Origin: Synechococcus sp.
GTDB taxonomy: Bacteria; Cyanobacteriota; Cyanobacteriia; PCC-6307; Cyanobiaceae
Assembly: GCA_047284725.1 (NCBI GenBank)
Contig: JBJBEO010000001.1
Coordinates: 1,464,203 to 1,528,202 of the forward strand
Length of the DNA stretch: 64,000 bases
Direction: 5' to 3'
Part shown: one piece after another, positions 1 to 32,177 of the stretch
Layout: every line of letters begins with the position of its first letter
Numbering within the stretch: the first letter of the stretch is position 1
The notes under the pieces: model-generated
Database searches by the model: none
Seen by the model: only the letters and a program-made list of their open reading frames with translations
Told to the model about the DNA's origin: nothing
Program-made: the position numbers and the translations under genes

Positions 1-1408
1 CAGAAACAAAAAATCTATTGCGGCCGTGTGACTTGGCTGAATACAGGTTCTTATCCGCTAATTCTCTTGCATCCTCAAACGTGATCGCTCGAGTAGAATC
101 AATAAAAACAGCACCACAGCTAATGGTAACATTGTTAAACGGAGAGGACTGATGTGGAATCCGACAGACTTCAATGCTTTGTACCATATCAGCAACAATA
201 GTCACAAAATTGGAAAATTGAACATCATGCAGAATGAGAAAAAATTCTTCGCCACCAAACCTAAAAAATCCGTCCAAAGGCCTCTTAGCGAATTTTGATA
301 ATTCTTTGGCCACTTGGACAAGGCATTTGTCACCCTTATCATGCCCATAGCCGTCATTATAATTCTTAAAAAAATCCACATCAATCATCACTAGCCCAAC
401 TGTATTTTGCGATCTGCACGAAATTCGCCAAATCTTTAAGCCAAAAGACTCGAGAGCTCTTCTATTTTTAACGCCGCACAAAGGGTCAATGGTTGCAAGG
501 TCAGACAGGGAAGAACAATTAAAGACGAGATTGTCAATCAAAGAAATAAATCCATCACTAAGCCTTTCTATCTCCGATGAAGAAGAAACCTCTTCCATGC
601 ACTGTTTTAACCTACCTGCAATTGAGTTCAGCTTATCCGAAAAGTCGTCGAGATCTCCACGGGGGTCAATCGACGGAATTGACCTAATAATTCTTTCTAT
701 ATTTTGAATAGGAACAGCAATACTGTCTCTTGATAATTTAATAATTGCGAAGCAAGATAGAATGCCGAACAAAAGAATCATTGCAATCAAATTGCGTGAC
801 CTATGATTTGCCTGATCAAGCAAACTCGACTCATACTGTTGTCTGAGTGACTCAAGACGCCTGGCATTCTCAAGAACCTCATCCTCAACCAACAATAAAT
901 CAAGAAGTGGGTAGGAATTTATCAAGTCAAGAGTTTCTTGCCTAGACAAAACTCCTGAGTAAATTTCTTTTTCCACCATACGACTTGCTCTCTGCACTCT
1001 CAAATAAGCAGACTCATGAATACGTTCAAAATTTATAAATTCAATCTTGTTAGCAAATCTTTCCCTCTCTTCATTGAACATTTTATTCTCCATTTCCGAT
1101 AAATACGTAGAAACATGCCCTATATTTTTCCGCTGATCAACGAAAGAAGAAGAATTTCTGCCTGACAAAACCTCAAGCTTTAACCTATCAAGCTTCGCTA
1201 TATCGTAGGCGAGCTCCTGAAAGCCATCAATCTCCAAGTTGATGTTCTCAATTCTAACTTGAGCAGCTATTTCACTGGACCTATACCAGAATTCATAGGA
1301 AATAATTGGAACCGTGGCAAGAAATAAACTAAAAACTTGAAGAGAAACAATTCTTCCGATTAGCTCATTTCGGCGAAAAAAGGGAAACAAAGATGAAAAT
1401 ATTTGCAT
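1..1408 (-). CDS. Membrane-anchored diguanylate cyclase (two TM segments, periplasmic domain, GGDEF); 3' end runs off the window
   Basis: Absent from the ORF track because it is truncated; translated by hand from ATG 1408 in one open frame to position 2: MQIFSSLFP...TIDPLCGVKNRR...VMIDVDFFKNYNDGYGHDKGD...RFGGEEF...VTISCG...ADKNLYSAKSHGRNRF. Intact GGEEF active site. Confidence 0.9.
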   Translation of the reverse strand, partial: MQIFSSLFPFFRRNELIGRIVSLQVFSLFLATVPIISYEFWYRSSEIAAQVRIENINLEIDGFQELAYDIAKLDRLKLEVLSGRNSSSFVDQRKNIGHVSTYLSEMENKMFNEERERFANKIEFINFERIHESAYLRVQRASRMVEKEIYSGVLSRQETLDLINSYPLLDLLLVEDEVLENARRLESLRQQYESSLLDQANHRSRNLIAMILLFGILSCFAIIKLSRDSIAVPIQNIERIIRSIPSIDPRGDLDDFSDKLNSIAGRLKQCMEEVSSSSEIERLSDGFISLIDNLVFNCSSLSDLATIDPLCGVKNRRALESFGLKIWRISCRSQNTVGLVMIDVDFFKNYNDGYGHDKGDKCLVQVAKELSKFAKRPLDGFFRFGGEEFFLILHDVQFSNFVTIVADMVQSIEVCRIPHQSSPFNNVTISCGAVFIDSTRAITFEDARELADKNLYSAKSHGRNRFFVS

Positions 1409-1414
1409 CAAACT

Positions 1415-2362
1415 TTAGCCTGATGATCGCAGAAACTTACTAGATATCCGGGGCTTTAGTGTCTGAGAGTCAATTGTTCCGAGCTGAATTCCCGCCTGAT
1501 AAATTAAGTCAATATTTCTTTCAGCAAGACCATCCTGGGAGAGCAATGAGACTTGGGATGCCGGGTTACTGTAAAATTTAAGACCTTCAAGCAACTCCTT
1601 GAATTCATTAGGCTCAAGCCCTTCATTCATAGCCATTGATTCGATAAACGGTTTTTCGTCCTTCTCAAACTTCTGCAAAAATTTTAACCATCCTGCGACT
1701 AAAGCCCGCAATTTACTTTCCTCATTGAGATAGAGATTTGGAGATACAACCATATAATCGAGAACTGCTGCTGGCACGCTAGATGAGTCAAAGATAGTAG
1801 AAGCTCCGAGTTCTCGCGCTAGTTCTGATGTTGGTGGATAAGTAACAATTGCATCAACTTCTCCGTTAGCCAAGGCCTCAGGCATCTTATCCATGACCAT
1901 TGGACGCAGAGCTATATCATCTACACTAAGATGACTATCCTGAAGAGATTGATACAAAACATATGTTCCAAATGCGTCAGTCGTTACGGCTACTTTTCTA
2001 CCCTTCAAATCATTTACGTCCGAGAAATTTATAGACATTAACTGATCACCACCTGTCGATTGATCAATAACCAAAATTATGACTGGGCATCTATCTGGAG
2101 TTATTTTACAAATGTTGGAGATCTCAATTCCTGTTAGCTGTGCAATATCGATTAGCCCTCGCGAGAAAGCCCTTGCGGGGTCAGCCTGATCTTCATATCT
2201 AACGATCTCTAAATTACTTATGTAACCCTCTTCAATAGCAGAATTCAGGATTTCATAGCCTGGCCAAGGCGAATAAGACACCTTCATATTCTCAGAAGAA
2301 TTCGAACATGCGGAAGTGAATGCCAGCAAAAATAAAACAGCAATTCGATTAATAGGATTCAT
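1415..2362 (-). CDS. SsuA/NMT1-like periplasmic solute-binding lipoprotein
   Basis: Lipobox TSAC; motifs SPWPGY, IDQSTGGD, DLKGRKVAV, GEVDAIVTYPP typical of the NitT/TauT binding-protein class; stop codon is 6 nt upstream of the DGC start. Confidence 0.8.
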   Translation of the reverse strand: MNPINRIAVLFLLAFTSACSNSSENMKVSYSPWPGYEILNSAIEEGYISNLEIVRYEDQADPARAFSRGLIDIAQLTGIEISNICKITPDRCPVIILVIDQSTGGDQLMSINFSDVNDLKGRKVAVTTDAFGTYVLYQSLQDSHLSVDDIALRPMVMDKMPEALANGEVDAIVTYPPTSELARELGASTIFDSSSVPAAVLDYMVVSPNLYLNEESKLRALVAGWLKFLQKFEKDEKPFIESMAMNEGLEPNEFKELLEGLKFYSNPASQVSLLSQDGLAERNIDLIYQAGIQLGTIDSQTLKPRISSKFLRSSG

Positions 2363-2857
2363 TTTTAGCTAAAATTTTATATAACCTAGCGGATTAAGCG
2401 CATTGACAACAGGAATCCAGGATAACTTTATGATTTCGAGCCCACATCAACTTTTAATACAACTCTCACTCGCGGCCAGATAAAACCAATAACGATCTTC
2501 CCTCGAGTCGAGTTAATGGTCGCACTAGAACAATGGCAACAAAAGACAGGCCGCAATAAGGCGACGATCAACAAAATAAAATACATAATACGCTTAAAAA
2601 TATCCTTATCGAGTAGATGTATCGACTAAAATCGATACATCAAGGTTGGCCCAGGGAAACAGCGCCATACCTTGAGGTCATGGACCCAGGGATGTCATAG
2701 CCAAGTCGCTTCGACCCACGTTTCTCTTTTGCAGTGATTGGGTTGAACCATGAACAAACGAGCGCGGAAGGCCGTCTTTCCACCGGGAAGGGCGACCTTC
2801 TCTTTTGACGCCGGATTTCGTCTGTTTCGACGGACAGGAGTTCTGGCAGACAACAAT

Positions 2858-2897
2858 TCATCTGATGGGAATCTTCGATGAGATCCCCATCAGATGA
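2858..2897. repeat. 17-bp inverted repeat (hairpin)
   Basis: TCATCTGATGGGAATCT-tcgatg-AGATCCCCATCAGATGA with one mismatch (a G-U pair on the minus strand). Confidence 0.8.
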
Positions 2898-3273
2898 CGG
2901 TGATACAACTGCCTAGGGATGACACAGCCGTGGAGGTGATCGCCCCCTAGGCCCGGGTGAAGTGCTCAGCAACCGCTCATCAGCGGTGAGGCGCATGTCA
3001 CACAGCCTGTCTTGAGCATGGTCTCCCACGCGTCTGACGCACACGATCAGCAGCCACTCGTCGCCCGATGACAGCGTGATCAGAACCCACCTTGCTCGTT
3101 CGGCTTCTTGCCGGTCTGATACACGAACAGCAGGTAGTGCCCCTCGCGGGTGAACTTGATGAAATCCAGTGACAGCAGCGGCCACCAGAGCCAGCGTTGA
3201 TCGGCAGGATTCACACCAGCTCCAGCCACCAAGATCGACCCATTGATGCCGTGATTCTGCAGGCCCCCATGGT

Positions 3274-6390: not shown

Positions 6391-6978
6391 TCAACCTTGA
6401 TTTGATCCAGAATCACTACTGCGAATTCCCAATCCCACCGCAAGGATCACGAGCACAGCAACACCAACACCTCCTGGGAGTAGCCATGCCGGAGTGTTGC
6501 TTTGTGCCGATTGATCGTCAGCCTGAGCATGCTTGGCAGCAGCGGTGCTGGCTGAGCTTTCCTCAACAGAAACGCGATCCTTCTTCTGAGACTCGGCGTA
6601 AAGCGAAAGAGCACCTGAAACAACCACCTGTTCATCGGCGCTGACGCCCTCGAGAACAACCGTGCGATCGCCGGTTACAGCTCCAAGAACGACGAACACC
6701 GGGTCATAGGTGTTGCCACTGCGAACGAAAACCAGTGATTTCCCATTTGCCTCAACGATGGCGACGGTCGGCAGGGTCAACTGCCCATCAGGCTCGCTCT
6801 GAGGTGCAGCAGTGGTGATGCCCAAGAGCTGATCCTGCTCAGGCGAGGCCTTCACCTGATCGACCTCACCGTTCTGAACGAACTCATCACCATGGCCAGA
6901 ATGGGCCAGCGCGGCTGGGCCAACAAAAGCTTGAGCACCACTGCAAAGCAGTACGCAGCTAAGAGCGAGCGCGCGCAT
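6391..6978 (-). CDS. Reduced RND periplasmic adaptor-like protein
   Basis: Signal peptide, mature N-terminus HSGHGDEF, CzcB-like C-terminal segment (LPTVAIVEANGKSLVFV...VLEGVSADEQVVVSG), C-terminal hydrophobic anchor; 12 nt upstream of the RND permease. Confidence 0.7.
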   Translation of the reverse strand: MRALALSCVLLCSGAQAFVGPAALAHSGHGDEFVQNGEVDQVKASPEQDQLLGITTAAPQSEPDGQLTLPTVAIVEANGKSLVFVRSGNTYDPVFVVLGAVTGDRTVVLEGVSADEQVVVSGALSLYAESQKKDRVSVEESSASTAAAKHAQADDQSAQSNTPAWLLPGGVGVAVLVILAVGLGIRSSDSGSNQG

Positions 6979-7329
6979 GCGTTCATCAGGAAGACGACAA
7001 CTAATTTTCGGCTAATGTCCGGGATTTAACAACCTGCCAAGAGAAGCCTCAGTTCCACACCGTCAAACCCAATTTCACGAAATCCCAAGGCCAACTCAGG
7101 AAGATGTCCTTCATAAAATCCGGAAACAGGGAATACAGAAGCAGTAAAGGCCGCCTGGACCAACGTTGACCCCCAGATTGCGTTCTGTTCAACACCACAG
7201 AACGCTGAACCCTTCTTCAATGTTACAAAGCCAGACAACCAAAGGTCAGCACTCGATAGCGTTGTTTGAGAGCTGAAAAGCGGAGACATCACGGTGCTCA
7301 GATCCCTCCGCAGGCGATGCAGGCGACTC

Positions 7330-7776
7330 ATGATCGCCATCTTCAGTGTCGCCTTGATTCTCATACAACCCGTGGGAACATTCGCCTGCGTGCCTGGCCT
7401 TGAATGGGGAATGGATCGCTCCAGCCTTGAAGCCCACCTGGGAGTGCCCCTCAGTGAAAGGAATGACAGCACCTTTGAAGCCCAATCTCTTCAGATCGGA
7501 GAGCTTCCGGTGAGTCGGCTGCGGTTGCAGATGGGCGATCAAGGTCTGAAGCATCTGGCATACGAGCTTCAACCTGATTCGATGGTCGAAGTCTTGGCAG
7601 GCTTGCGCTCCCGCTATGGATCTCCGGTGAGCACCACATTGGATGACAAACAGCAACCTTTACAGCAGGTCTGGGTCTGGAACACTGGAGATGACTGCAT
7701 CACGGCTGTCCGATCCGGAAACGACGCGTTTGTGCTCAGCTACCGTCCCACCCGCCTCAATCCAGCGCTGCTTTAA
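7330..7776 (+). CDS. Exported hypothetical protein
   Basis: Hydrophobic signal-like N-terminus followed by GLEWGM; protein-like composition; start may be 7294 or 7330. Confidence 0.6.
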   Translation: MIAIFSVALILIQPVGTFACVPGLEWGMDRSSLEAHLGVPLSERNDSTFEAQSLQIGELPVSRLRLQMGDQGLKHLAYELQPDSMVEVLAGLRSRYGSPVSTTLDDKQQPLQQVWVWNTGDDCITAVRSGNDAFVLSYRPTRLNPALL

Positions 7777-8485
7777 GTGGTTAGGGCTCAGGTTGCCAAA
7801 GGAAGCAGCACCAGCAGACAACGGCTGGATGACGCGCGATGGCACTGAATCCTCCAGTGCCAAATCGTAGCAGCCGTGATGCCAATCATCTTTTCGACAA
7901 CTGATCCAGAGCGCCAAGGACACACGAGAGAAACAGCAAGTGCAACCGCACACTCTGATCTCAAGCCGAACGAACCTGTAATAACTTCAGATCGCATCCA
8001 TCATAACCAGCTGCACACAGTCTCAGAGACAATTGACTGATAAACCATTCTCAGGATCTGCCTTCGTGTGGTGAAACACTGAAGAATCAGGCAAGGTGCG
8101 CCATAGCGCTGACTGAAGACCACGACCATCATCAAGGCCATCAGCTTGAAGACCCTTCACTTGCAGCCCAGTGCATCGCCAATCGATTAGGAGTCGACCA
8201 CCCGAACAATTGAAAGAATAAGCGCTGTTGAATCAATCATTTCTGACCACTTGAATTGTTGCCTCAAAGCCACATCGGCTTTCAAGAATGACTTTTCAAC
8301 AGCAAGCTTCAGCCATGAGTTTGCTCTCATTAACGCATCACGGCCACCACGGCTGTATGCCATGCAAGCCATCAGAGAATCATCGAGATTTTCACTTCGG
8401 CTTGTCTCGTTTCTAAACACTGTGGAGCTGACCAAGGGAGTTCAGGACACCAGTCCAATACGATTTTCACCCGTCAGCCGAGCCA

Positions 8486-9442
8486 ATGACGATTGATTGC
8501 CTGTGTATCGGTCTGCTTTGCGCAGATTTGGTCTGCGACCCGATTGACGCATTGCCAAACCCCGGTCAGCTGATTGAAACCCACAGAATGGATCTGAGCC
8601 TTGGAGGCTGCGCAGCGAATGCGGCCTATGACCTCGCGCACCTTGGCGTGTCTGTTGGCGTCGGAGGTGGCATCGGCGACGATTTTTTCGGCCAGTATCT
8701 GGTTCACACCCTTGAGCAAGCGGGCGTCGACACAGCAGGCATTCACCGCACTGGAGACGCGGCAACGGCAACAACAGCAGTGATCAATGTGCATGGAGAT
8801 GACAGGCGCTTCATCTCAGCTGTCGGAGCCAACCGCTTATTCACCCAGGACATGATCCCGGCAGGTCTGATCGAATCCGCCAGGGTGATCTACATCGGTG
8901 GCTTCCTGATGCTGGATGCTCTGGAAACCGAGGAGACCCTGCACCGATTGCGCCAGGCGCGCGCCAATGGCGCCCTTGTTGTGTTGGATGTGATCGAAGT
9001 GATCGATCCGGCGGCCATGAAGCGGGTGGCTCGGTTTCTGCCCTATGCCGATGTCGTGCTTCCCAACACGGACGAAGCCGCCCTGCTGACCGGATGCACG
9101 GACCCTTGGGACCAGGCACGCACGTTCCTGGATGCAGGAGCAAGCACTGTTGTCATCACCGGAGGTGAGCAGGGCGTGCATGTCATGCAGCACGGTTTGC
9201 GTTTGCGGAGTGACGCCTACCCCACGACCTTCAGGGGGGGGACAGGTGCCGGCGATGCCTTTGATGCGGGATTCATCGCCGGCCATCTCAACGGCCAGGA
9301 TCTCCGAGGCTGTCTTCGCTGGGGTAGTGCGATGGGGGCCAGCTGTGTGCGCAGCACCTCGGCAACAGCCAGTGTCTTCGACAGGGCAGAAGCCCTTCAG
9401 TTCATGACCAGCCATGAACTGCACATCGAGGAGCTCGAATGA
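8486..9442 (+). CDS. PfkB-family carbohydrate kinase
   Basis: GGCAANAA, GDDFFG, PNTDEA, VITGGEQG and GTGAGDAFDAGF signature motifs. Confidence 0.9.
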   Translation: MTIDCLCIGLLCADLVCDPIDALPNPGQLIETHRMDLSLGGCAANAAYDLAHLGVSVGVGGGIGDDFFGQYLVHTLEQAGVDTAGIHRTGDAATATTAVINVHGDDRRFISAVGANRLFTQDMIPAGLIESARVIYIGGFLMLDALETEETLHRLRQARANGALVVLDVIEVIDPAAMKRVARFLPYADVVLPNTDEAALLTGCTDPWDQARTFLDAGASTVVITGGEQGVHVMQHGLRLRSDAYPTTFRGGTGAGDAFDAGFIAGHLNGQDLRGCLRWGSAMGASCVRSTSATASVFDRAEALQFMTSHELHIEELE

Positions 9443-10434
9443 GGGGGCAGGAACAACGACTCAGGCAAATCGCGGAGGCCTGGAATGAGGCGGAGATCAG
9501 CGAATCGGCGATCCATCGCTGGATGGACCAATTTCCAGCCGTCGATCAACCGACAGCCATGCGGCTACTGGAGTGCATGGAGCTGCACAGCTGGGCACGG
9601 ATGATCCGCGAAAGCCGCCTGCTGCACCAACGCCTGTGCATGGACCTCAAAGGCGATGGGTTCGATGTGGACGGGTTCAGCGACATCGACTTCGCCCGAG
9701 CCTTCACCTGCAAAAGCGGCGACCTGGCCTCCTATGTCTACCGGAAAGCGAATCTTCTCTCCGTCAGGCACTTCCACACGATTGATGCGCTGAAAAACAG
9801 CACCGAGGACAGAAGCCAACGGGCCATTGTTGTGCTGGACGACTACATCGGCACCGGCTCCCAGTTCCTGTTCCAGTTCATTGGCCGCAGTGGGGGCAAC
9901 ACCAGGCTGCTGAAGGGGTACAAACGCATCCGGCTGTGCTCGCTGGTGGTGCATGACGATGCCCGCGTCAAATGGCGTCGTCTGCAACGCCATGCCGTTG
10001 CCGAGGTGATGCAGATCGAAGAGCAGCAACTCGCCTGCGTTGACTTCAGCAACGAGCGCGATCAGCTGATCGCCCGACTGGGTGAGATTGACTGGCGCAA
10101 GGCCGGGTTGATCGCAGCGCAGCGGGACTTCCCCGTGACAGCCCACCCTGATCTCACACCCCAAGAACGTTCAGCGATGCGTCAGTTTCTTCATCGCCAG
10201 AATTCAGCCGAGGAAGGAGCCGGGACCACCGAGTTTCTGCAGGGGCATCACTCCTTCTTTTACGGAGCCCCCAATGCCCTCGCCCGCGTCTTGCTTCCCC
10301 TGTTCAAACGGGTGGAGGATTTCACGATCTACCCCACTGAATCGCTGCAGGGTCTGCCCGCCGAGATCATCGACTACAACATCGAAAACCCCTGCGCCGT
10401 GACGCCTCTGAATCCTCACCCTCCAGACCCCTGA
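9439..10434 (+). CDS. Phosphoribosyltransferase-like protein (PRTase-CE-like)
   Basis: PRPP-loop-like IVVLDDYIGTGSQF, N-terminal WMDQF...AMRLL, KSG motif, C-terminal FFYGAPN; ATGA overlap with the PfkB gene. Confidence 0.65.
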   Translation: MRGQEQRLRQIAEAWNEAEISESAIHRWMDQFPAVDQPTAMRLLECMELHSWARMIRESRLLHQRLCMDLKGDGFDVDGFSDIDFARAFTCKSGDLASYVYRKANLLSVRHFHTIDALKNSTEDRSQRAIVVLDDYIGTGSQFLFQFIGRSGGNTRLLKGYKRIRLCSLVVHDDARVKWRRLQRHAVAEVMQIEEQQLACVDFSNERDQLIARLGEIDWRKAGLIAAQRDFPVTAHPDLTPQERSAMRQFLHRQNSAEEGAGTTEFLQGHHSFFYGAPNALARVLLPLFKRVEDFTIYPTESLQGLPAEIIDYNIENPCAVTPLNPHPPDP

Positions 10435-10509
10435 CGTTGATTTGGCGTATCACATCGGCCATCCATTCCGCAGGAGCCAGCAGCCAGCTCAATCCTTTTC
10501 TGAGACCTT

Positions 10510-11088
10510 ATGGACAACGAAGTCGTGAACTCTGAGCTGCTGCAAAGCATCAACCCACAGCTGCGTCCAGCAATCGAGGCGGATTTGCCTGCGGTGCGAC
10601 AGCTTCATCGCAAGGTCTGGCCGACGGAAGAAGGAGAGCGAATCGTCCAAGTTGTGGAAAACCTCTGGCAAACCTCAACAGGAGCCCCTCATCCAACACG
10701 GCACTGGGTGATCACCGACAAGGATGAGGCGATCCTTGGCCATGTCTGCTCGAGCGGCATCACCACAGCACAGGAAGGCAGGGTGGGATGGATTCTGGCC
10801 CCCCTTGCCGTCGCCCCCGAACATCAGGGCTTCGGTTACGGAAGTGCATTAGTCAGGCATGCCATCAACCATGCACTGACCAGCGATCAGCAGCGGATCG
10901 TTGTCTACGGAGATCCTGCTTATTACGAGCGCTTTGGGTTTGACAACCAGGCAGCCATCGCCTTCAAGCCCCCCTATCCGCTAGCCCACCCCATGGGTTG
11001 GCAAGGGATCGTTGCCAACAGAGAGAGTCTCCAATGCCCCGCCGATGTGAGGTGTCATAAGGCATTGATGCAGGCTGAGCTTTGGTGA
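10510..11088 (+). CDS. GNAT N-acetyltransferase (YhbS-like)
   Basis: LAPLAVAPEHQGFGYGSALV acetyl-CoA motif and VVYGDPAYYERFGF. Confidence 0.88.
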   Translation: MDNEVVNSELLQSINPQLRPAIEADLPAVRQLHRKVWPTEEGERIVQVVENLWQTSTGAPHPTRHWVITDKDEAILGHVCSSGITTAQEGRVGWILAPLAVAPEHQGFGYGSALVRHAINHALTSDQQRIVVYGDPAYYERFGFDNQAAIAFKPPYPLAHPMGWQGIVANRESLQCPADVRCHKALMQAELW

Positions 11089-11323
11089 TCCAGCCAGAGC
11101 GAGATCAAGAACGAATGAAACCAACGGCAGCGCAAAACATCACCACACGCCAAACCGGCTGCGCCAACTCACCAACAGCGGATTATCAACTTGAACCTAG
11201 AGATGATCTTGGCGACTATTGATTTGATACAACGCAGCCAATCTCTCAACGAGGCTTGAAGCATGGGTCATCAGAAGCCCCTTCTCAAGCGATAGTCAAC
11301 AACGCTTTCACTGGGCAAAGGCA

Positions 11324-11877
11324 TTGCCAGACCAAGAGAGGAATCGTCCCATGCCAATCAGACGATCAATGTACTTCCAAACAGTTTTTTGTGTGACAAA
11401 GAAAGGAGTCATGAGGCTAACGGTAGACACCGAAGATGGCGATTACCTTCTGCCAGGACTTTTGGCCTCGGATGAAGTTCCCGGAGCCTCACCAACCGAT
11501 ATTGAAACATTCATCCCGATCACTCTCAGCCGATACGAATCACCGGCCCGAGTCTTGACGACATTGCATCATCTACAGATTTAACGCTCTTAATGATGCG
11601 CGCGATTTCTTCAAGACTTCGTCAATCAGAAGCTCTACTCTCGATCGTCGGGCAACGACGCGTTGAAGACCGTGTACGTTGCTTTCTTGAATTAGTTGCT
11701 AACGACCATGGAGTTGTAACTCCACATGGAATTCATATTAATCTTCGTCTTACACATCAAGATATTGCCAATGCAGTGAGTTCAACACGAGTGACAGTGA
11801 CACGAGTATTGAGCTGTCTCAAAAAGAAAGGTTGGCTTCGATCAAGCTCTCAACGCCACTTAATGCTCACGTATTAA
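11324..11877 (+). pseudogene. Crp/Fnr-family regulator, frameshifted near 11530
   Basis: Frame 2 gives a cNMP-barrel-like part (KGVMRLTVDTEDGDYLLPGLLASDEVPG...ITLS); frame 1 continues PIRITGPSLDDIASSTDL...RVEDRV...LRLTHQDIANAVSSTRVTVTRVL (Crp HTH). One missing base joins them. Confidence 0.75.
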
Positions 11878-11906
11878 GTGGCGTTGAGTATGACAACTAT
11901 TTGCAT

Positions 11907-13169
11907 TTACTCAGGGCAAAGACGTTTGCTAACAGACGGCAGACGCAAACTGCTGACCCATGATAAGAATACTAAAAGAGATGAAGTCACAAGACACACC
12001 TGCAAACCTGCTGTTGCATTTCGACCGATCATAAAAATGGAACCCGACAACAACGTGCCCAAAAGACGCCCTGCCGCATTGGCCATGTAATAGAAACCAA
12101 CGTTCAGACTCACATCGTCCTGATCGGTATAGGCAAGAACCATGTAGGAATGAACCGATGAATTCATCGCGAACACCACACCAAAGGCGGCGAGTCCTGC
12201 TATCACAGCAATCGAAGCATCAACCTCTCGCCAGAGAGCCAAAGCAATCAAGCCGGGGATTGCTGTGAGCAAAGCAGACCAGAATTGAACAGTCGAAGGT
12301 CCAGGGTTCGTGGACTTTCCCCACAGACGCCTGATTGCAGGAGCGAGACCTTGCACACAGCCATAACCGATGACCCAAAGACCGAGAAAGCCTCCAATTT
12401 TCCAGAAATCCCAGCCGAAAGACACCTCAAGAAAGACTGGCAAGGCCACCACAAACCAGACATCTCGAGCTCCGAAAAGAAAAAAGCGCGCAAGCGACAA
12501 CATATTGATGGCCTGTGACTTCGAAAAAAGAGAAGAGAAACCAGGCTTTGCCTTCATCTTCCCGATGTGAGAAGGAAGCACCAACGTCACAAGAAAGGCA
12601 GCAGCCAAGCCTCCTGCCATCCATGCCACCGTTTGATTGAAGCCAAGAGCAGTCAACAACAGACCACCCAGAAAAAAACCAACGCCTTTCAGAGCATTTT
12701 TTGAGCCGGTCAAGATAGCGACCCAACGAAACAATTGATGCTCGGCCTCATTGGTCGTTTCTGGCAAGCCTTGCAAAACTGTCTTGATTGCACTTTTGGC
12801 ACTCATCTTGTTCAGATCTTTAGCAATGCCACTGATTGCCTGAGCAGCCATCACATAAATCACACTGACCAGCTTCGGCCAACTCGATGCCACAGGTACC
12901 AGCATTAATAAGGCTGCTATTTGCAACAACGTTCCCAGCCAAAGAGTGAGCCTGAGGCCATATCGAGCAGCGATCCAACCTCCATAAAGGTTAGTAATCA
13001 CACCAAAAAGTTCGTAAAAAAGGAAGAGAGAAGCAATTTCCAGAGTGCTGTAGCCAAGCTCGTGGAAATGAAAAACCACGAGCATGCGCAAGGCTCCATC
13101 GGTCAGGGTGAAGGCCCAATAGTTTGCAGTGACGACACCATATTGCTGCAATGCAGAAAGTTTCATCAC
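11907..13169 (-). CDS. arsJ: Organoarsenical (1-arseno-3-phosphoglycerate) efflux MFS transporter
   Basis: [55 protein letters not shown]; overlaps the gap stop codon. Confidence 0.92.
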
Positions 13170-14185
13170 ATCCCTCTTTCAGATTCCAGCTTCACCACAT
13201 GGCAAACCAGATCAGCCATACGACTGCTGTAGCCCCATTCGTTGTCGTACCAGCCGTAAACCTTCAACTGGGTGCCACCGACCACCATCGTGGAAAGAGC
13301 ATCGACCACCACGCTGCGGTCGTCGTTGACGTAATCCACCGAGACCAGGGGCCTGGTTTCGTAGCCAAGGATGCCTTGGAGTGGTCCCTGGGCGGCCAGC
13401 GCGAAGGCCTGGTTGACCTCCTCCGTGCTGGTGGGCCGATCCAATTCGAAGACAGCGTCGGTCAGGGAGGCGTTGAGCAGCGGGATGCGCACGGCATGGC
13501 CGTTGAGCTTGCCCTGAAGCTCCGGAAAAATCATGGCAATCGCCTTGGCGGACCCCGTGGTGGTAGGAATCAGCGATTGCAGGCAGGAGCGTGAACGCCG
13601 CAGATCAGCCTTGAAGGCATCGACCACAACCTGGGTATTGGTGACGTCATGCAAGGTCGTGATCGAACCGTGACGAATGCCGAATTGCTCGTGCACCACC
13701 TTCACGATCGGGGCCAGACAGTTAGTGGTGCAGGACGCTGCTGTCACCAGCTGGTGCTGATGGGGGTCATAGAGGTGGTGATTGATTCCGTAGACGATAT
13801 TGAGCGCTCCCTTGACAGGACATCCAACAACTACACGTTTGATCCCGGCCTGACCGGAGTAGGGCTCAAGGGTGTCGGTGGATTTGAACCGGCCACTGCA
13901 CTCGAGCACCATCTCGACCCCTGCTGCAGACCAGGGCACATCAGCGGGGACACTGCAGCGACTGAAGCCAATGGGTTGACTGTCGATCAGGAGCTCTGCA
14001 TCGCTGGTTGCCTCGACCAGGCGACCCCAGCGTCCATGGACCGAGTCAAAGCAAAGCAGGTGTGCGGCCGATTCAGCCGTGGCCTGATGGTCGTTGATCT
14101 GGACAATCTCGATGCCCGATCGACCAAAAAGAGCGCGGCAGACCAGCCGTCCGATCCGCCCGAAACCATTGATGCCAATCCGCAT
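13166..14185 (-). CDS. gap3: ArsJ-associated glyceraldehyde-3-phosphate dehydrogenase
   Basis: [13 protein letters not shown] start at 14185, catalytic [19 protein letters not shown]; coupled to arsJ. Confidence 0.92.
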
Positions 14186-14196
14186 GCGCTGCCACA

Positions 14197-14240
14197 AACC
14201 AATCAACCAATCTTGATACATCAAGGTTTCTTGATTGGTT
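14197..14240. promoter_or_regulatory. ArsR operator: two tandem ATCAA-N6-TTGAT boxes
   Basis: ATCAAccaatcTTGAT (14202-14217) and ATCAAggtttcTTGAT (14220-14235) between divergent gap and arsR; same form as the Synechocystis arsBHC operator. Confidence 0.85.
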
Positions 14241-14267
14241 AAGCTGAGGTTAGGCACTGATTGAGTC

Positions 14268-14588
14268 ATGCCCCAGGCCCTCAGCATCCCTCCTGCAGAG
14301 CAGCTCTGTCCCCTGTTCAAGGCGCTGGCAGACCCGTTGCGCCTGAAGGTGGCGCTGGCCTTAGCGGCCGGCGAGCATTGCGTTTGCGAACTCACCGAGC
14401 AGATGGGCCTGGCCCAGTCCAAGCTCTCCTTTCACCTCAAGGTGATGCGAGAAGCGGGCCTGCTGGAGTGCCGCGTTGAGGGACGCTGGGTTTACTACAG
14501 GCTTCGCGATGAAGCAGTGGGAGACTTAAGGGATTGGCTTGATCGCCTGCATACCACCAGGTCACGTACCCCCCAGTCGTGCTGTTGA
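14268..14588 (+). CDS. arsR: ArsR/SmtB-family arsenic-responsive repressor
   Basis: [16 protein letters not shown] metal site, [15 protein letters not shown]-terminal CC. Confidence 0.9.
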
Positions 14589-21508: not shown

Positions 21509-22017
21509 GCTCTCCCCGTGCCATCAGCCCAGAGGAACTGGGCCGTCTCTACGACGACCATGCACCTGCAGTCCATCGGCTCGCGTTCAGCCTTCTGTCT
21601 CAGCGTCAGGAGGCTGAAGATCTCACGCATGATGTCTTCCTCAGGGTTCAGCGCGGCGGCTTCAAAGCGGAACGTGGATCAATCCGTCAGTACCTCTTAC
21701 TGCTGACTCGCTCGATGGGCCTCAACAGACTGAAGCAACATCGCAATCGCCGGCGAATCCTTGAGTGCTTCAGGCCTGGGTCAGGAAGAAACGACCCGAT
21801 CGATCTACAGGCCATTGATGCCCGCGTCAATCTTGAGCGAGCCCTCTCTCAGCTCTCATCCCGGGAACAACAGATTCTTGCCATGAATTACCGCGAAGGC
21901 ATCAGTCAGAGCCACATTGCGACCACATTGCAACTGCCCCTGGGAACGGTGAAAACGATCAGCCGTCGGGCATTGCTCAAACTCCGTCAGGCTCTGTCGT
22001 CACAACAAGGGAGTTGA
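21505..22017 (+). CDS. ECF sigma-70 factor (SigK-like)
   Basis: GTG start overlapping the ccdA stop; region 2 LYDDHA...EAEDLTHDVF; region 4 GISQSHIATTLQLPLGTVKT. Confidence 0.85.
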   Translation: MSSPRAISPEELGRLYDDHAPAVHRLAFSLLSQRQEAEDLTHDVFLRVQRGGFKAERGSIRQYLLLLTRSMGLNRLKQHRNRRRILECFRPGSGRNDPIDLQAIDARVNLERALSQLSSREQQILAMNYREGISQSHIATTLQLPLGTVKTISRRALLKLRQALSSQQGS

Positions 22018-22736
22018 CCATGACTTCACAACACCAAACGAACAATGCATTCAGCAAGCACCATGAACTGCTTGCCGGCAAGGTGCTGGGCAACCTCAGC
22101 TCCGATGAACGCTCCGCCTTGGCCGAGCAACAGCCTCTTTCAGCAGAAGAGCAGACGCTGCTTGATGAACTCCAGACTGCACACACCCGAATGGAGCACC
22201 ACTCATCTCCACCGCTGTCTGCAGCGGTGAAGCAGCGTCTGTTGCAGGCAGCTCGTCGACCAAGAAGCCCCAATCGTCAGCACTGGCTGATTGGAGGATT
22301 GGTTCTGCTCCTGACGCTGACCGGAGCAGAGCTCTATCGATCAAAACTCCAGCTTGCACAACAGAATCCAGACACGCCTTCACTGGCTGTACATCCTGAT
22401 GACCGTGCCTTTGTGCTGCATGCAACCAAGGCAGGAATGATGCATCAGGCGCATGGTGAAGTCCTCATTCGTCCAGGGCAGGGAACCAATCTTCTGACCG
22501 TGAATCACCTGCCACAGGCCCCCAAAGGGAAGCTCTATCGACTCTGGGCCATCACGCCTGATGGCGTGAAAGGTTGCGTCCATTTTCTTCCGGATCAAGG
22601 TGGAAATGTCGTGATGACCCTCCCGTCCCAACCCACGGGATCAGCCACAGAGCTGCTGATCAGCCTTGACCCTGTTGCATCCCGTGAGCGGATTGATTCG
22701 CAACCTGAAGACCCTGTTCTAGCCAGTGCTATTTGA
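22014..22736 (+). CDS. Anti-sigma factor (RskA-like)
   Basis: N-terminal ELLAGKVLGNLSSDE, single TM, periplasmic LPQAPKGKLYRLWA motif; overlaps the sigma stop codon. Confidence 0.82.
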   Translation: MTMTSQHQTNNAFSKHHELLAGKVLGNLSSDERSALAEQQPLSAEEQTLLDELQTAHTRMEHHSSPPLSAAVKQRLLQAARRPRSPNRQHWLIGGLVLLLTLTGAELYRSKLQLAQQNPDTPSLAVHPDDRAFVLHATKAGMMHQAHGEVLIRPGQGTNLLTVNHLPQAPKGKLYRLWAITPDGVKGCVHFLPDQGGNVVMTLPSQPTGSATELLISLDPVASRERIDSQPEDPVLASAI

Positions 22737-22918
22737 GCTTTCAATCGGATGTGCGGGAGAGCGACGTTGCTGTCAACAACAACCCTGCACAGTTTGATTC
22801 ATTCGCCCGTCGATCCGTTCTGCGCCGGCAGATCCTCAGTATCGGAATGATCCAGTTCGTCTGTGGCTCTGTGGGATCAGCACGGTCAGACTCAAAGGAT
22901 GACCGCGATAAAGACGAG

Positions 22919-24634
22919 ATGGCTCCCTCCGTCGTGACCTACGCCCTTGATCGCCTCGCAGATCTCGGAATCGGCCATGTTTTCGGTGTACCGGGTGACT
23001 ATGCCTTTCCGATCAACGATGCTGTGGAGGTGCATCCACGGCTGCAATGGGTGCCATCGGCCAATGAGCTCAATGCGGCCTACGCCGCTGATGGCTATGC
23101 GCGCCGACGGGGAGCTGGCATCGTCTGCACCACCTATGGCGTCGGTGAACTGAGTGCGCTCAATGGCCTGATGGGTGCAATGGCAGAGCGTCTTCCCGTC
23201 TTTCATCTGGTGGGCACACCCAGTCAGCGGATCGTGCGTCAAGGGCTGATCTGTCATCACACCCTCGGAGATCGCCACTATGAGCGCTTTGAGGCCATTT
23301 CTGCGTCGGCCAGTTGTGTGAGCGCCAGGCTCACCCCTGAAAACGCTGTGATCGAACTGGAGCGCGTGATTGACAAGGCTCTTGAGCAGTCCAGACCGGC
23401 CTATCTCACGTTTCCCATGGATCTGGCGCTGATGCCGATCACCGGGACCCCGATCCAGGGATCTCCGATCGGCGAGATCAACCAACACAAAAGCGTATCC
23501 AGGGAACTGGAGGCAGTGCTTGATCTCTTGGAGGCAAGGATCGATGCAGCATCCAATCCCGTTGTACTGCCGACCATCACCCTGAAGCGGTTCGGCCTGG
23601 TGAGTGCATTCGAGGCATTCCTTCAGGCCTCGGGTCTGGCCTACGCCACAACACCGATGGACAAGTCACTCCTGTCCGAGGATCACCCCGCCTTCCTTGG
23701 GATGTACAACGGCAATCGATCGACACCTGCATCCCTGCGGAGCGTGGTGGAGGACGCCGATCTGGTCATCGATATTGGTGGGTTGGTACTCGAAGACCTC
23801 AATACAGGTCTGTGGAGTGGGTCACTGGATCCCAACCGGCTCGTTGCATTGCACGCCGACTGGGTGCAGGCGGGCAATCAGGTGTTCACAAGTGTCAGCA
23901 TCAGTGATGGTCTGGAGGGATTGACGAGGCGTTTTGAGAACGCACCGAAACGCCTGTCCTGGTGGGGAGAGCGACGACCTGTCAAACCCGCTGAGCTGCT
24001 GCCGCTCAGCGACGCCATGGATCAGCCCACCAGCTCAGCAAGCTTCTACCCCCAACTCCAACGATTTTTGCGCCCGTCCGACCTCCTGGTGTCCGATACC
24101 GGCACCTGTCTTCTGAAGCTCAATGCCATCCGACTTCCGGCAGAGGTAGCGATGGAAAGTCAGACCCTCTGGTCATCCATCGGGTGGGGCACCCCGGCAG
24201 CGCTGGGATGTGCCCTGGCGGAACCGGAGCGCAGGGTCGTTCTGGTCACCGGTGACGGTGCCCACCAGCTCACGATGCAGGAGATCGGAGTGATGGGTTT
24301 CACGGGAGTGAATCCTGTGGTGATCGTTCTCAACAACGGCCTTTACGGGGTGGAGGCCTTAATCAGTGAGACAGGTCATGCCTACAACGATTTACCCCCT
24401 TGGCGTTATGCAGACATTCCGCCTGCGCTGGGATGCAACGGTTGGTGGTGTGGACGGGCTGCAACAGAAGAACAACTCAAACAGGCATTGGCAGCAATCA
24501 ACGAGCACCAAGGAGCGTCCTACCTCGAAGTGCTGATTCCGGCAGAAGAAAGCCAACCCCTGGCCGAGGAGGTGATTGAAACCATGCATCAGACGATGAC
24601 CCCGCATTCCAGCCATTGCGCTGACGATCAGTGA
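22919..24634 (+). CDS. ThDP-dependent alpha-keto acid decarboxylase (pyruvate/indolepyruvate decarboxylase family)
   Basis: FGVPGDY, NELNAAYAADGYAR, TTYGVGELSA, HHTLGD, GDGAHQLTMQE...NN ThDP motif; start set at ATG 22919. Confidence 0.9.
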   Translation: MAPSVVTYALDRLADLGIGHVFGVPGDYAFPINDAVEVHPRLQWVPSANELNAAYAADGYARRRGAGIVCTTYGVGELSALNGLMGAMAERLPVFHLVGTPSQRIVRQGLICHHTLGDRHYERFEAISASASCVSARLTPENAVIELERVIDKALEQSRPAYLTFPMDLALMPITGTPIQGSPIGEINQHKSVSRELEAVLDLLEARIDAASNPVVLPTITLKRFGLVSAFEAFLQASGLAYATTPMDKSLLSEDHPAFLGMYNGNRSTPASLRSVVEDADLVIDIGGLVLEDLNTGLWSGSLDPNRLVALHADWVQAGNQVFTSVSISDGLEGLTRRFENAPKRLSWWGERRPVKPAELLPLSDAMDQPTSSASFYPQLQRFLRPSDLLVSDTGTCLLKLNAIRLPAEVAMESQTLWSSIGWGTPAALGCALAEPERRVVLVTGDGAHQLTMQEIGVMGFTGVNPVVIVLNNGLYGVEALISETGHAYNDLPPWRYADIPPALGCNGWWCGRAATEEQLKQALAAINEHQGASYLEVLIPAEESQPLAEEVIETMHQTMTPHSSHCADDQ

Positions 24635-29000: not shown

Positions 29001-30362
29001 TCATCGGAACGAGGTCAACAACCCCCCCACAACTGGCCACCAACACAGATCATCCACCTGCTGCTGGGCTGTGAAGTCCTCAACGCGCTTGATTTCAGCG
29101 GTCATGCTGTCAAGCAATGATCCGTGCAGGAATAAGCCCATGGCGTTGAGAAGCACGTCATCAGCCTCGAAGGCTTGACGTGCCTCGGCCAACGTGTCGG
29201 GCAATCGTTGCAAGTCAGACGAATTGACGCACGTCGCAGGATCACCAACACACGGATCAGGCAAGGGGAGTGGATTGGCAACGGCATCGATCACCAGCGC
29301 CTGAAGTGCACCAAGCAACAGGTAAGGATTGGTCGTGGGGTCAACAGCTTTCACCTCGAGATGGGCAGGACAACGATCCGGTGCTGAAGGGATCAAGCGC
29401 AGGGCCGCTTCTCTGTTTTCGATGCCCCACACCTGAAAAGGAGCCGACCACGTGCTGGGAACCAGGCGGAGAAAAGACACCGGCGATGGACTCGCCAATG
29501 CCACCAGAGACGGAAGTCGATGAAGCAGGCCGGCGATCAGAGCCTCCCCTCGCGGTCGCAGGCCTGCAGGTCCGTGGCCATTCTCGAGCAATGGGCCCTC
29601 TTCATCCCGAACACTGAAATGAACGTGTCCACCATTGCCAACGGAATCAAAGCGCGGTTTGGGGCTGAAACTCGCCATCCACCCAAACGTCCTGGTGACG
29701 CGCTGAACCACAAGGCGGGCACGGATCAACAGATCAGCCGCCTTCAGCGGATGATCAGGACTGAAGGACAACTCAAATTGAGAAGGCCCATATTCGGGAT
29801 GAAATTGAATCCATTGAACGTCAGCCTGATCAAGCGCATGCAGCAAGGCCGTGGCGTAATCCATCCCCTCAATCAAACGATCTGCGCCATACGGGCCACC
29901 AGGGATCACCGGCTGCGGCGACCCATTGCCATCGGGAGTGAGCAAAGACCACTCCAATTCAAAGCCAGCGGTCATCGACAAACCAGCGTCTTCTAAGGAC
30001 TCACACATCCGGCGACAGAACTGTCGCTGATCGGCTTTGTAAGCAGTACTGTCGCGCTCCCATCGATCGCCCGCGGCCCAGGCCCATCCATGGACAGGGT
30101 CCAGAATCGCGATGGAGGCTGGATCGGCCCTCAGCCGCAGATCCCCATCGGGTCGAGCACACCGATGCGTCGGGTCGATCACTCCATCCGTGCGAAATGC
30201 ATCCGAAACTGGTGAGAAACCGACTCCAGCGTCGATCGCATGCTGCAGCTGCCTGAGTGGCACGACTTTCACCAGAGACGCGCCAGCATGATTCACCCAG
30301 GTGATGGCAATCTGACGAATCCCACTGCTGGCAAGCGACTCCACAGAGAGGGGTGGTTGCAT
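29001..30362 (-). CDS. Glutamine-synthetase-like (gamma-glutamylating) ligase
   Basis: GFELEW, HPEYGPSQFE, PKP...GNGGHVHFS, WGIENREAALR, EVKAVDPTTNPY; N-terminus unlike true GlnA. Confidence 0.82.
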   Translation of the reverse strand: MQPPLSVESLASSGIRQIAITWVNHAGASLVKVVPLRQLQHAIDAGVGFSPVSDAFRTDGVIDPTHRCARPDGDLRLRADPASIAILDPVHGWAWAAGDRWERDSTAYKADQRQFCRRMCESLEDAGLSMTAGFELEWSLLTPDGNGSPQPVIPGGPYGADRLIEGMDYATALLHALDQADVQWIQFHPEYGPSQFELSFSPDHPLKAADLLIRARLVVQRVTRTFGWMASFSPKPRFDSVGNGGHVHFSVRDEEGPLLENGHGPAGLRPRGEALIAGLLHRLPSLVALASPSPVSFLRLVPSTWSAPFQVWGIENREAALRLIPSAPDRCPAHLEVKAVDPTTNPYLLLGALQALVIDAVANPLPLPDPCVGDPATCVNSSDLQRLPDTLAEARQAFEADDVLLNAMGLFLHGSLLDSMTAEIKRVEDFTAQQQVDDLCWWPVVGGLLTSFR

Positions 30363-30516
30363 ACACCGACCGAAACATTCATCAGCCTCAGCATGCAGGC
30401 AATCGAAAACACATGCTCACAATCCACATCGGTTCGATACCCACGATGCGGATCAATGCGGGTTGCCACTGTGCGGGGTTCTGAACAGACTCCAGTGCGG
30501 TAAGACAGCGGCAGGG

Positions 30517-30699
30517 ATGAGATCCAAACGAGCCCTGGGAGCAGCAGCGATTGCCTGCATCGTGATCTTGGCAGTGGTGATTCAGTCGCTGGCCAGCCAT
30601 GGAATCACTCTGGTGATCGGCCTTCCGGGCTGGGTTCTGATCTTCATTGGTTTGCAGATTTCTCTTTCAGTCACGGCAGCCTGGATGGCACAACGATGA
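30517..30699 (+). CDS. Small two-TM partner protein of the sodium:solute symporter
   Basis: Two hydrophobic helices with GLPGW; ATGA overlap with the SSS gene, a common arrangement. Confidence 0.65.
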   Translation: MRSKRALGAAAIACIVILAVVIQSLASHGITLVIGLPGWVLIFIGLQISLSVTAAWMAQR

Positions 30700-32177
30700 G
30701 CATCACGCTTCTGACGTCCCTGCTCGGACTGGGTCTTTATCTGGCTGGATTGCTCTGGCTAGGCACCAAGACGCACAACAGTCACTCTGCCAGCGCAGAT
30801 CAGTATTTTCTGGCAGACCGACGCTTGAAGGCCGGTGTCCTTTTTTTCACACTGATTGCCACGAATTTCAGTGCCTTCTTTTTTCTCGGTTTCGCAGGTG
30901 CAGGGTACCGAATCGGTCTTGCCTACTACCCGATGATGGCCCTGGGAACGGGCCTCGCGGGCCTCTGCTTCGGAAGCATCGGCTGCCGGGTCCGACGGAT
31001 CGGCAAAGCCCATGGACTGATCACACCCTCAGAACTGATCGGGCATTGCATCCCTGGGGAAGGCACAAGGCTTCTGGTCTTTCTGGTGATGCTGATCTTC
31101 ACCCTGCCCTATCTCGCCCTACAGCCCATTGGCGCCGGCTATCTGCTTGCAAGCATGTCGAATGGCGCTGTGCCTTACGGAGTCGGAGCGTTCCTGCTCA
31201 CGATTGTGATTGTGATGTACGTGGTTGGAGGAGGGATGCAGGCCGTCGCCTCCACGGATGTGCTTCAGGGGATTCTGATGTTTGTATTGATGCTCGTTGC
31301 TTTCTCCGCAATTGCCCATGGCATCGGAGGAGTCGAACAAGCCAACCGATTGTTGAACACCGAGTTGCCAGCACTGTTCACAGGGGCAGGCCAAGGCAAT
31401 TTCTTCACATGGAAAGTATTTGCCAGCTATTTGTTGCTCTGGCCCCTTTGCCTGCCGATGTTTCCGCAACTGATGATGCGTTTCTTCGCCGCAGGAAACG
31501 ACCAGTCCCTGAAGCAGTCGATGGTGCTCTATCCCATTGTCGCTGGGGTGTTGTTCATCTGCCCTGTCTTAATCGGAGTATGGGGGCATCTGGCATTCCC
31601 TGGCCTGACCGGACGTGCTGCAGATCAGATCATGCCGCTGATGTTGGCTGAGTACAGCCCGGAGTGGCTCACTGGTCTGGTGATGGTGGGTGCACTTGCA
31701 GCATTCATGTCAACGCTTGATTCACAGTTGCTCGCGCTCTCGTCGATGATCACGCGTGATCTCTATTGCAGGTATTGGCGGCCAAAGGCTTCGTTGAAGG
31801 AACAGGTTCATGTGGGGCGAATCGCAGTCTGCGCATTGGCTATCGGAGGTCTTGCCATTGCACTGCAACCACCGGAAGCGATTCTCTCACTGGCCACCCA
31901 TGCCTTCTCAGGCCTAGCCGTCCTGTTTCCCATGGTCGTGGGAGCGATCTACGGCCTGCGATGGTCGGTCAATGGAGCAATCCTGTCTGTCCTGGGTGGA
32001 GAGGCCATGCTGCTTGGTTTGTCGATGCAGTGGATCCCCACATCAGTGCAGGCAGGCTTCCTGCCGATGGTTCCTGCAGTGGGCGTTGCCGTCATCATCC
32101 TTGCCATTGATTGGATTCTTCACGCCAGGAACAACAAACGGTTACCGACCGCACCGACGATCAACGAAGCGAATTAA
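30696..32177 (+). CDS. Sodium:solute symporter family permease
   Basis: YFLADR, ATNFSAFFFLG, GGMQAVASTDVLQG, AAFMSTLDSQLL. Confidence 0.9.
   Translation: MSITLLTSLLGLGLYLAGLLWLGTKTHNSHSASADQYFLADRRLKAGVLFFTLIATNFSAFFFLGFAGAGYRIGLAYYPMMALGTGLAGLCFGSIGCRVRRIGKAHGLITPSELIGHCIPGEGTRLLVFLVMLIFTLPYLALQPIGAGYLLASMSNGAVPYGVGAFLLTIVIVMYVVGGGMQAVASTDVLQGILMFVLMLVAFSAIAHGIGGVEQANRLLNTELPALFTGAGQGNFFTWKVFASYLLLWPLCLPMFPQLMMRFFAAGNDQSLKQSMVLYPIVAGVLFICPVLIGVWGHLAFPGLTGRAADQIMPLMLAEYSPEWLTGLVMVGALAAFMSTLDSQLLALSSMITRDLYCRYWRPKASLKEQVHVGRIAVCALAIGGLAIALQPPEAILSLATHAFSGLAVLFPMVVGAIYGLRWSVNGAILSVLGGEAMLLGLSMQWIPTSVQAGFLPMVPAVGVAVIILAIDWILHARNNKRLPTAPTINEAN

Follow-up and report, generated by a model that had tools for sequence, protein, structure and literature searches.

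In a 64,000-nucleotide stretch of a complete Synechococcus sp. genome (2.58 Mb in one contig; G000 below), the gene of a PfkB-family sugar kinase, which we call PfkB1, overlaps by four nucleotides the gene of a phosphoribosyltransferase (PRTase) of the PRTase-CE family. We refer to the whole stretch (G000:C1:1464203-1528202) as the window, to the second protein simply as PRTase, and give all positions in the window. PfkB1 and PRTase are neighbours in one shallow lineage only. We therefore regard them as probably independent of each other, as accessory genes that a rearrangement in a genomic island brought together in that lineage, and not as a new two-enzyme system. An earlier interpretation made from the letters of the window alone (the sequence-only reading) had taken the pair for a translationally coupled two-enzyme module. 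The pair and its junction are laid out as follows.

8486..9442, + strand: PfkB-family sugar kinase, called PfkB1 (318 aa; PF00294)
9439..10434, + strand: stand-alone PRTase-CE family protein of a divergent picocyanobacterial branch (331 aa; PF24390)
9428..9442, + strand: PfkB1/PRTase junction, with GAGGAG at 9428-9433, a 5-nt spacer and ATGA at 9439-9442

The overlap described in the sequence-only reading was confirmed: the stop codon of PfkB1 and the start codon of PRTase share the four bases ATGA (9439-9442), and a Shine-Dalgarno-like hexamer, GAGGAG, is located at 9428-9433, 5 nt ahead of the PRTase ATG. Four-nucleotide overlaps are not rare in this part of the genome; when the longest open reading frames (ORFs) of the window were mapped up to 25 kb, three more were seen at 13166-13169, 22014-22017 and 22733-22736, and the PfkB1/PRTase overlap is therefore not unusual by itself. 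Close protein relatives of the window proteins carry the source labels Synechococcus, Synechococcaceae or Vulcanococcus.

Distribution and surroundings of the two genes

The two genes were searched for in a genus set of 46 genomes and in a family set of 395 genomes that are at least 90% complete and represent 36 genera. PRTase was found in 11 genomes of the genus set and in 23 of the 395 family genomes (~6%; 7 of the 36 genera); two of these 23 carry decayed fragments only (G194 and G218), and one carries a distant homologue of 29% identity. PfkB1 was found in 11 genomes of each set, which in the family set belong to 2 of the 36 genera. Both genes occur together in five family genomes (G000, G007, G013, G019 and G036) and also in G065, an 85% complete member of the genus set. 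Among the family genomes, 18 of the 23 with PRTase lack PfkB1, and 6 of the 11 with PfkB1 lack PRTase. The two genes are adjacent in G000 only, that is in one of the five family genomes that hold both, and are 11 kb apart in G007, 14 kb in G013, 15 kb in G036 and 23 kb in G019. In addition, 21 other PRTase loci were searched by tblastn (E<=1e-10) with flanks of at most 8 kb in either direction, and PfkB1 was detected at none of them (0/21). The single adjacency, the unpaired PRTase genomes and the 21 loci together argue against a conserved two-gene PfkB and PRTase module, and the dedicated module proposed in the sequence-only reading was thus largely contradicted by co-occurrence.

The neighbours of both genes vary from genome to genome. 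PfkB1 elsewhere adjoins a second PfkB gene, TsaE, AhcY or an FGGY kinase gene. The upstream side of PRTase was visible in 17 of the 21 other loci. At seven of these it is occupied by a gene in divergent orientation, with ABC, DNA-ligase, RND/HlyD or permease genes alongside; at four by an alpha/beta hydrolase gene with an ATGA overlap on the PRTase start; at three by a glutamine-synthetase-like (GS-like) gene; at two by an IRK_C-domain gene, 5 nt away; and at one by a DUF1400 hydrolase gene, 7 nt away. L029 and L044, one locus each from the PRTase searches of genome contigs and of metagenome contigs, are cut at or inside the gene and give no information on the upstream side. In G061 a different PfkB paralogue is located downstream of PRTase in convergent orientation. 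The gene that follows PRTase in the window was considered as well:

10510-11088: GNAT gene, downstream of PRTase

The sequence-only reading had left open whether GNAT belongs with the pair; it was present at no other PRTase locus examined. In L044, the PRTase relative (87% identical) is followed by DUF4079 and DM13 genes, not by GNAT.

In the PRTase tree each gene context forms a clade of its own, and the clade of G000 is sister to the GS-like-context clade (G016/G018/G061) with 99/100 support. In G000, the RND pump, alpha/beta hydrolase and sigma-factor region have orthologues 0.9 Mb from the pair, and PRTase is absent between them; the vacant place between the hydrolase and sigma-factor orthologues is the one that PRTase occupies in the G007 group. 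By eye, no non-coding element shared up- or downstream of PRTase was seen in 19 loci. We observed a three-codon mini-ORF (ATG, two codons, TGA) in the 51-nt spacer that separates the GS-like gene from PRTase in L010 (G016) and L041 (G061), where it overlaps the PRTase start as TGATG; a one-nucleotide difference abolishes it in G018. This mini-ORF may have been left by a deletion or may serve translational coupling.

In the interpretation that we prefer, a rearrangement in a picocyanobacterial island would have placed PfkB1 beside PRTase, and the two genes would now probably be co-transcribed and translationally coupled, the kinase not being required for PRTase. PRTase apparently lacks a promoter of its own. 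In at least four contexts it lies 0-7 nt behind an unrelated upstream gene or overlaps it. A consensus scan of 7600-11400 gave no promoter-like sites, and terminator-like sites in the same interval were no commoner than chance. Repeats around the pair were short matches of chance size only, and flanking cassette repeats were not found.

Evidence for a linkage of PfkB1 and PRTase

Several observations weigh against this interpretation. The ATGA overlap and the Shine-Dalgarno-like GAGGAG argue for genuine co-expression in the source strain, and in the four genomes where PfkB1 and PRTase are separate they are still within 25 kb of each other. Three metagenome runs, each from a different study, contain contigs that bridge the junction; those of two runs are identical to the window over 8300-9499, and the bridging contig of the third run has 4 differences. 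Furthermore, the PRTase clusters (82-97% identical) and the PfkB clusters (87-94%) list contigs of the same source and of equal size (2960, 6464, 9446 and 4354 nt), which we infer to be the same contigs. The pair thus seems to be retained in near relatives, and only in those (PRTase 82-97% identical). Finally, PfkB1 starts right after the GS-like gene in G066 and G029 (TAG then TTG, no gap), and in G016, G018 and G061 PRTase comes 51 nt after that gene. The three pairwise adjacencies are most simply explained by one ancestral order, GS-like-PfkB1-PRTase, so that the linkage may predate the lineage.

In the metatranscriptome run X16, contigs matched parts of both genes at 88-95% likeness and none extended across the junction by 31 nt in both directions; because of this, and because the RNA library may contain DNA, they demonstrate neither expression nor co-transcription. 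Contig depth was greater over PRTase than over PfkB1, and contigs of runs X5 and X8 fit the window from 9447 on and are unlike the sequence before it. Variants of PRTase may thus exist beside other genes, a hint that we did not count, contig depth being unsuited to ranking genes.

One possible explanation of the linkage is that the kinase and PRTase form a real module within the lineage, in which the kinase would phosphorylate a sugar or nucleoside and PRTase would use or supply a related phosphoribosyl compound, the product being a nucleotide in modified form, a signal molecule or a compound active against phage. The ATGA overlap with its hexamer, the retention of the pair in near relatives, the catalytic motifs kept in both enzymes and the location of the genes within 25 kb in four further genomes would all fit such a module. 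It is nevertheless difficult to reconcile with the 18 of 23 PRTase genomes without PfkB1 and the 6 of 11 PfkB1 genomes without PRTase, with a coupling of PRTase to an unrelated alpha/beta hydrolase elsewhere that is equally tight, and with the 9 canonical PRTase-CE loci examined, none of which has a PfkB gene beside PRTase-CE. A literature search in a phage context gave no description of a PfkB-PRTase pairing, and the sequence-only reading knew of none; in the literature searched, the term PRTase-CE was met only in connection with retrons. We consider this module quite unlikely.

Another explanation is that PfkB1 and PRTase are what is left of an older cluster, which also held an SSF transporter and a GS-like ligase, would have served the uptake and processing of a small molecule, and lost different genes in different lineages. 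This reading would account for the GS-like gene standing directly before PfkB1 in two genomes and 51 nt before PRTase in three, for the sister relation between the PRTase clades of G000 and G016/G018/G061, and for the SSF gene found divergent beside the GS-like gene in L010, L011, L041 and at 29001-32177 of the window, 19 kb from the pair. However, the three-gene row was present in no genome examined, and each gene persists without the others. We found neither a GS-like remnant upstream of PfkB1 (best E 1.3) nor a PRTase remnant downstream of the GS-like gene of the window (E 0.12), and the 3' flank of the GS-like gene, occupied in the window by a P450 gene, may be a mere variable slot. Outside the genus, the GS-like gene and PfkB1 are absent from the examined flanks of all 12 PRTase loci. 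Such an old cluster therefore appears very unlikely. We give the same slender chance to the related claim that an ancestral SSF/GS-like/PfkB/PRTase-CE cluster, which would build or recycle an unusual phosphoribosylated small molecule, survives in PfkB1 and PRTase as its core, with the ATGA coupling reflecting a real enzymatic partnership.

The two proteins and known PRTase systems

PfkB1 matched PF00294 with 172.5 bits (cut-off 25.8; E 1.7e-50) and contains GG at 40-41, NTDE at 194-197 and GAGD at 254-257; we take GG, NxxE and GAGD to be the catalytic motifs of the PfkB/ribokinase family. Against the NCBIfam equivalogs it remained under every cut-off (best IolC_N, 138.5 vs 300; ribokinase, 115 vs 299.65), and no substrate can therefore be assigned to it. 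Among solved structures, E. coli YdjH is its best relative (3h49; E 9.3e-26). PfkB1 shares with YdjH and the other ribokinase/PfkB sugar kinases the fold family and the catalytic motifs, but differs from the named kinases of this type in falling below all of those cut-offs. Homologues at E<=1e-60 numbered 2447 among 8000 scored candidates, and some of those at 55-57% identity carry the source names Planctomycetota or Pirellulales. Judged from its sequence, PfkB1 is an ordinary PfkB sugar kinase within a widespread orthologous group. The closest homologue, at ~6400-7310 of L045 (G413:C1:828000-842000), is 74-93% identical in two overlapping segments and its 3' end region apparently contains a frameshift or a partial duplication; no PRTase adjoins it.

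PRTase passes the gathering cut-off of Pfam PF24390 (33.5 bits vs 27), with residues 25-181 aligned to positions 1-157 of the 253 positions of the profile, and a six-frame search of the genome with this profile gave a single match in G000, at 33.4 bits. The PADLOC models of the retron PRTase_III-A match it at E 5.3e-13. An AlphaFold model of the protein (pLDDT 90.4, pTM 0.88) was compared with the PDB. The top Foldseek rows were type I PRTases with a probability of 1.00 and E 1.5e-4 or weaker, the two exceptions being titled hypothetical proteins (5vog, 4paw). In VIA-align the model matched HGPRT, UPRT, OPRT and PyrR chains with Z 9.5-8.5 over 115-174 aligned residues, where a Z near 8 is middling only, and the 50 rows were PRTases, PyrR or untitled structural-genomics entries. 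The family profile itself gave two chance-level matches only (E ~0.3) against the PDB sequences. The assignment to PRTase-CE, which the sequence-only reading had proposed, is thus borne out by Pfam, PADLOC and the fold with type I PRTases at the top, and all the motifs that it quoted are present in the protein.

These motifs are WMDQF at 28-32, AMRLL at 40-44, KSG(D) at 92-95, VVLDDYIGTGSQF at 131-143 and YGAPN at 275-279. In an alignment of 34 sequences, W28, A40, S93, G94, R102, N105, D135, Y136, F273, N279, P287, R291 and D294 are invariant, and all of them are kept in the window PRTase. The motifs of most interest for the binding of phosphoribosyl pyrophosphate (PRPP) and for the family are the following.

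9712..9723, + strand: K92-S93-G94-D95, likely pyrophosphate (PPi)-binding loop; S93 and G94 invariant, K92 and D95 in at least 90% of the 34 sequences
9829..9867, + strand: PRPP loop VVLDDYIGTGSQF, residues 131-143; D135 and Y136 invariant, D134, G140 and Q142 in at least 90% of the 34
10255..10275, + strand: FFYGAPN, residues 273-279, family-specific C-terminal motif; F273 and N279 invariant, F274, Y275 and P278 in at least 90% of the 34

The assignment of K92-D95 as the PPi loop is our assumption, made on the pattern of PRTase motifs in general. The PRPP loop has two acidic residues (D134 and D135) followed by small residues, as expected in the PRTase-CE family. As modelled, PRTase is a protein of the type I PRTase fold with an acidic PRPP loop and the invariant residues of its family intact, and it is predicted to bind PRPP via K92-D95 and residues 131-143.

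Relatives of PRTase are few: 79 were found at E<=1e-3 among the 1.84 billion cluster representatives searched. Full-length relatives at 27-35% identity cover the whole PF24390 profile (positions 1-253). Many of them (alignment A1; P0125-P0162) have at their start a hydrophobic segment resembling a signal peptide, an odd feature in an enzyme that depends on PRPP, and one, P0127, is fused to a DSP-type phosphatase. The more remote members of the family include fusions to DAC, TIR, AAA_16 or DSP phosphatase, which fits a family engaged in conflict and nucleotide signalling. An insert of ~20 residues after the PN motif is seen in more distant relatives and is absent from the branch of the window PRTase.

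The characterised relatives within the family are effectors of type III-A retrons. According to one report, defence by the Retron-Eco11 effector requires its PRPP motif, PRPP falls by ~50% when the effector is activated, and the retron PRTases share the motif Gx14PNNxP (PMC12746101). The window PRTase belongs to the same Pfam family above the cut-off, matches the PADLOC models as described above and has the type I PRTase fold. Its acidic loop, VVLDDYIGTGSQF, has the same pattern as the loop VVILTDTIGSGNQ of Retron-Eco11 described in the same source, and a C-terminal PN motif is conserved in both. By analogy, these likenesses suggest that the likely chemistry is the binding and consumption of PRPP; PRTase may transfer the phosphoribosyl group to an acceptor or may merely consume PRPP like the Retron-Eco11 effector.

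In other respects the locus is unlike a type III-A retron. The retron motif is not matched exactly, the window PRTase having G262-x15-P278-N279-A-L-A in place of Gx14PNNxP, with the PN core alone kept, and PRTase aligns directly to the first 157 of the 253 profile positions only. No reverse transcriptase (RVT_1) was matched in the whole genome at E<=0.01, and the control was positive in 3 of 14 named genomes. Pfam detected no winged-helix (wHTH) domain in PRTase or in the downstream GNAT, and no partner. A search of 6900-12000 gave no Rfam match at E<=1, and Rfam may not hold the non-coding RNA of type III-A. A textbook type III-A retron was observed in L056 (G492:C1:16178-19948), from a member of the phylum with a small genome, where PRTase-CE with wHTH-PRTase_assc (PF24409) is followed by RVT_1.

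PF24390 was found in 77 of 401 sampled cyanobacterial genomes. The full-profile PRTase-CE proteins of other cyanobacteria belong to the same domain family and phylum as the window PRTase, but they match at E 1e-51 to 1e-57 over the whole profile and have a conserved partner, which the window PRTase lacks. At 9 such loci the partners are NADAR (5/5), AAA_16 (STAND), linked or fused (2/2), and a retron reverse transcriptase with wHTH (1), and PfkB is among the partners of none. In L049, L051, L052, L053 and L054, a NADAR-domain gene directly adjoins a stand-alone, full-profile PRTase-CE gene of ~350 aa on the same strand (5/5), and PRTase-CE with NADAR looks like a conserved two-gene system in other cyanobacteria. 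NADAR had no match in G000.

A defence-associated PRTase domain is also present in ShosT of the ShosTA system. ShosT is reported to be a toxin with PRTase and pyrophosphatase activities whose PRTase domain binds PRPP, with no identified acceptor (PMC11961720). Unlike PRTase of the window, ShosT has an N-terminal hydrolase domain and the antitoxin ShosA, neither of which is present at the window locus. The PADLOC models of ShosT did not match PRTase at E<=0.01. ShosT entries were not among the Foldseek and VIA-align rows listed, a result that leaves room for similarity.

Taken together, PRTase is probably a partner-less, divergent PRTase-CE protein with PRPP-dependent chemistry. Whether it still has a role in conflict is a separate matter. 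It could be a domesticated, non-toxic metabolic enzyme, for example in the salvage of an unusual base, with its conflict role lost and its neighbours irrelevant. Consistent with this, PRTase has no conserved neighbour that is a sensor, an immunity gene or a regulator; the gene is placed behind housekeeping-type genes, from which it is predicted to be expressed; its homologues were found in none of IMG/VR viral contigs, INPHARED (GenBank) phages and PLSDB plasmids; and it forms a divergent branch that aligns to 157 of the 253 profile positions and misses the insert of ~20 residues after PN. A patchy distribution (23/395) and an island location are however unsuited to core salvage, all family-wide invariant residues are kept, and G194 and G218 hold decayed fragments only. 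In addition, every characterised or context-informative relative is of the conflict type, with RT (reverse transcriptase), NADAR, TIR, DAC or STAND. Complete domestication of this kind is unlikely in our view, and as to PRTase in general we lean only slightly towards a latent conflict-type enzyme rather than a domesticated metabolic one.

Island setting and significance

Around the pair are an RND efflux pump, an apparently split regulator of the Crp type, an ArsR/GAPDH/MFS trio, a sigma/anti-sigma pair, a P450 gene and the GS-like/SSF pair. The sequence-only reading had raised a possible defence-island setting. This was not supported, as none of the 33 neighbouring ORFs located at 1.4-44.4 kb of the window matched PADLOC at E<=1e-6. 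The window contains no tRNA.

We made several other observations in the surroundings. The first 3000 nt (1-3000) have a G+C content of 0.39-0.45, compared with 0.53-0.62 across the rest of the first 24 kb, and hold GGDEF and NMT1-like genes; the low G+C suggests foreign DNA at the island edge. Two short co-directional ORFs of 86 and 94 aa are located at 11324-11877, and since the Crp-type HTH was detected in the second only, a Crp-family regulator may be split here by a stop or a frameshift. A perfect 16-nt hairpin follows them at 11849-11888. Further on, an MFS transporter gene (11907-13169, - strand) and a GAPDH-like gene (13166-14422, - strand) are accompanied by a divergent ArsR gene (14268-14588, + strand). 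The Gp_dh_N domain of the GAPDH-like protein begins only at residue 80, so the true start of the gene is probably later. The set at 11907-14588 may be a case of the ArsJ/GAPDH arsenate-resistance pair, which it resembles. Another tight overlap, of 4 nt, is found at 22014-24634, where an anti-sigma (RskA_C) gene runs into the gene of a 633-aa thiamine-pyrophosphate enzyme; the two have no obvious tie in function.

If the ancestral cluster existed, a conflict-type PRTase would have taken on a metabolic or signalling task in phototrophs that rank among the ocean's most abundant. If, as we think probable, PfkB1 and PRTase are independent island genes, their pairing calls for caution, as a 4-nt overlap and an attractive pair of enzymes are not evidence of a system. 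PRTase-CE, a conflict-type enzyme that elsewhere occurs with RT, NADAR, STAND, TIR or DAC, persists singly in ~6% of picocyanobacterial genomes (23/395), always in variable island positions and often directly behind unrelated genes. This orphan PRTase-CE might represent a defence reduced to one gene, or a toxin-like enzyme that has become domesticated.

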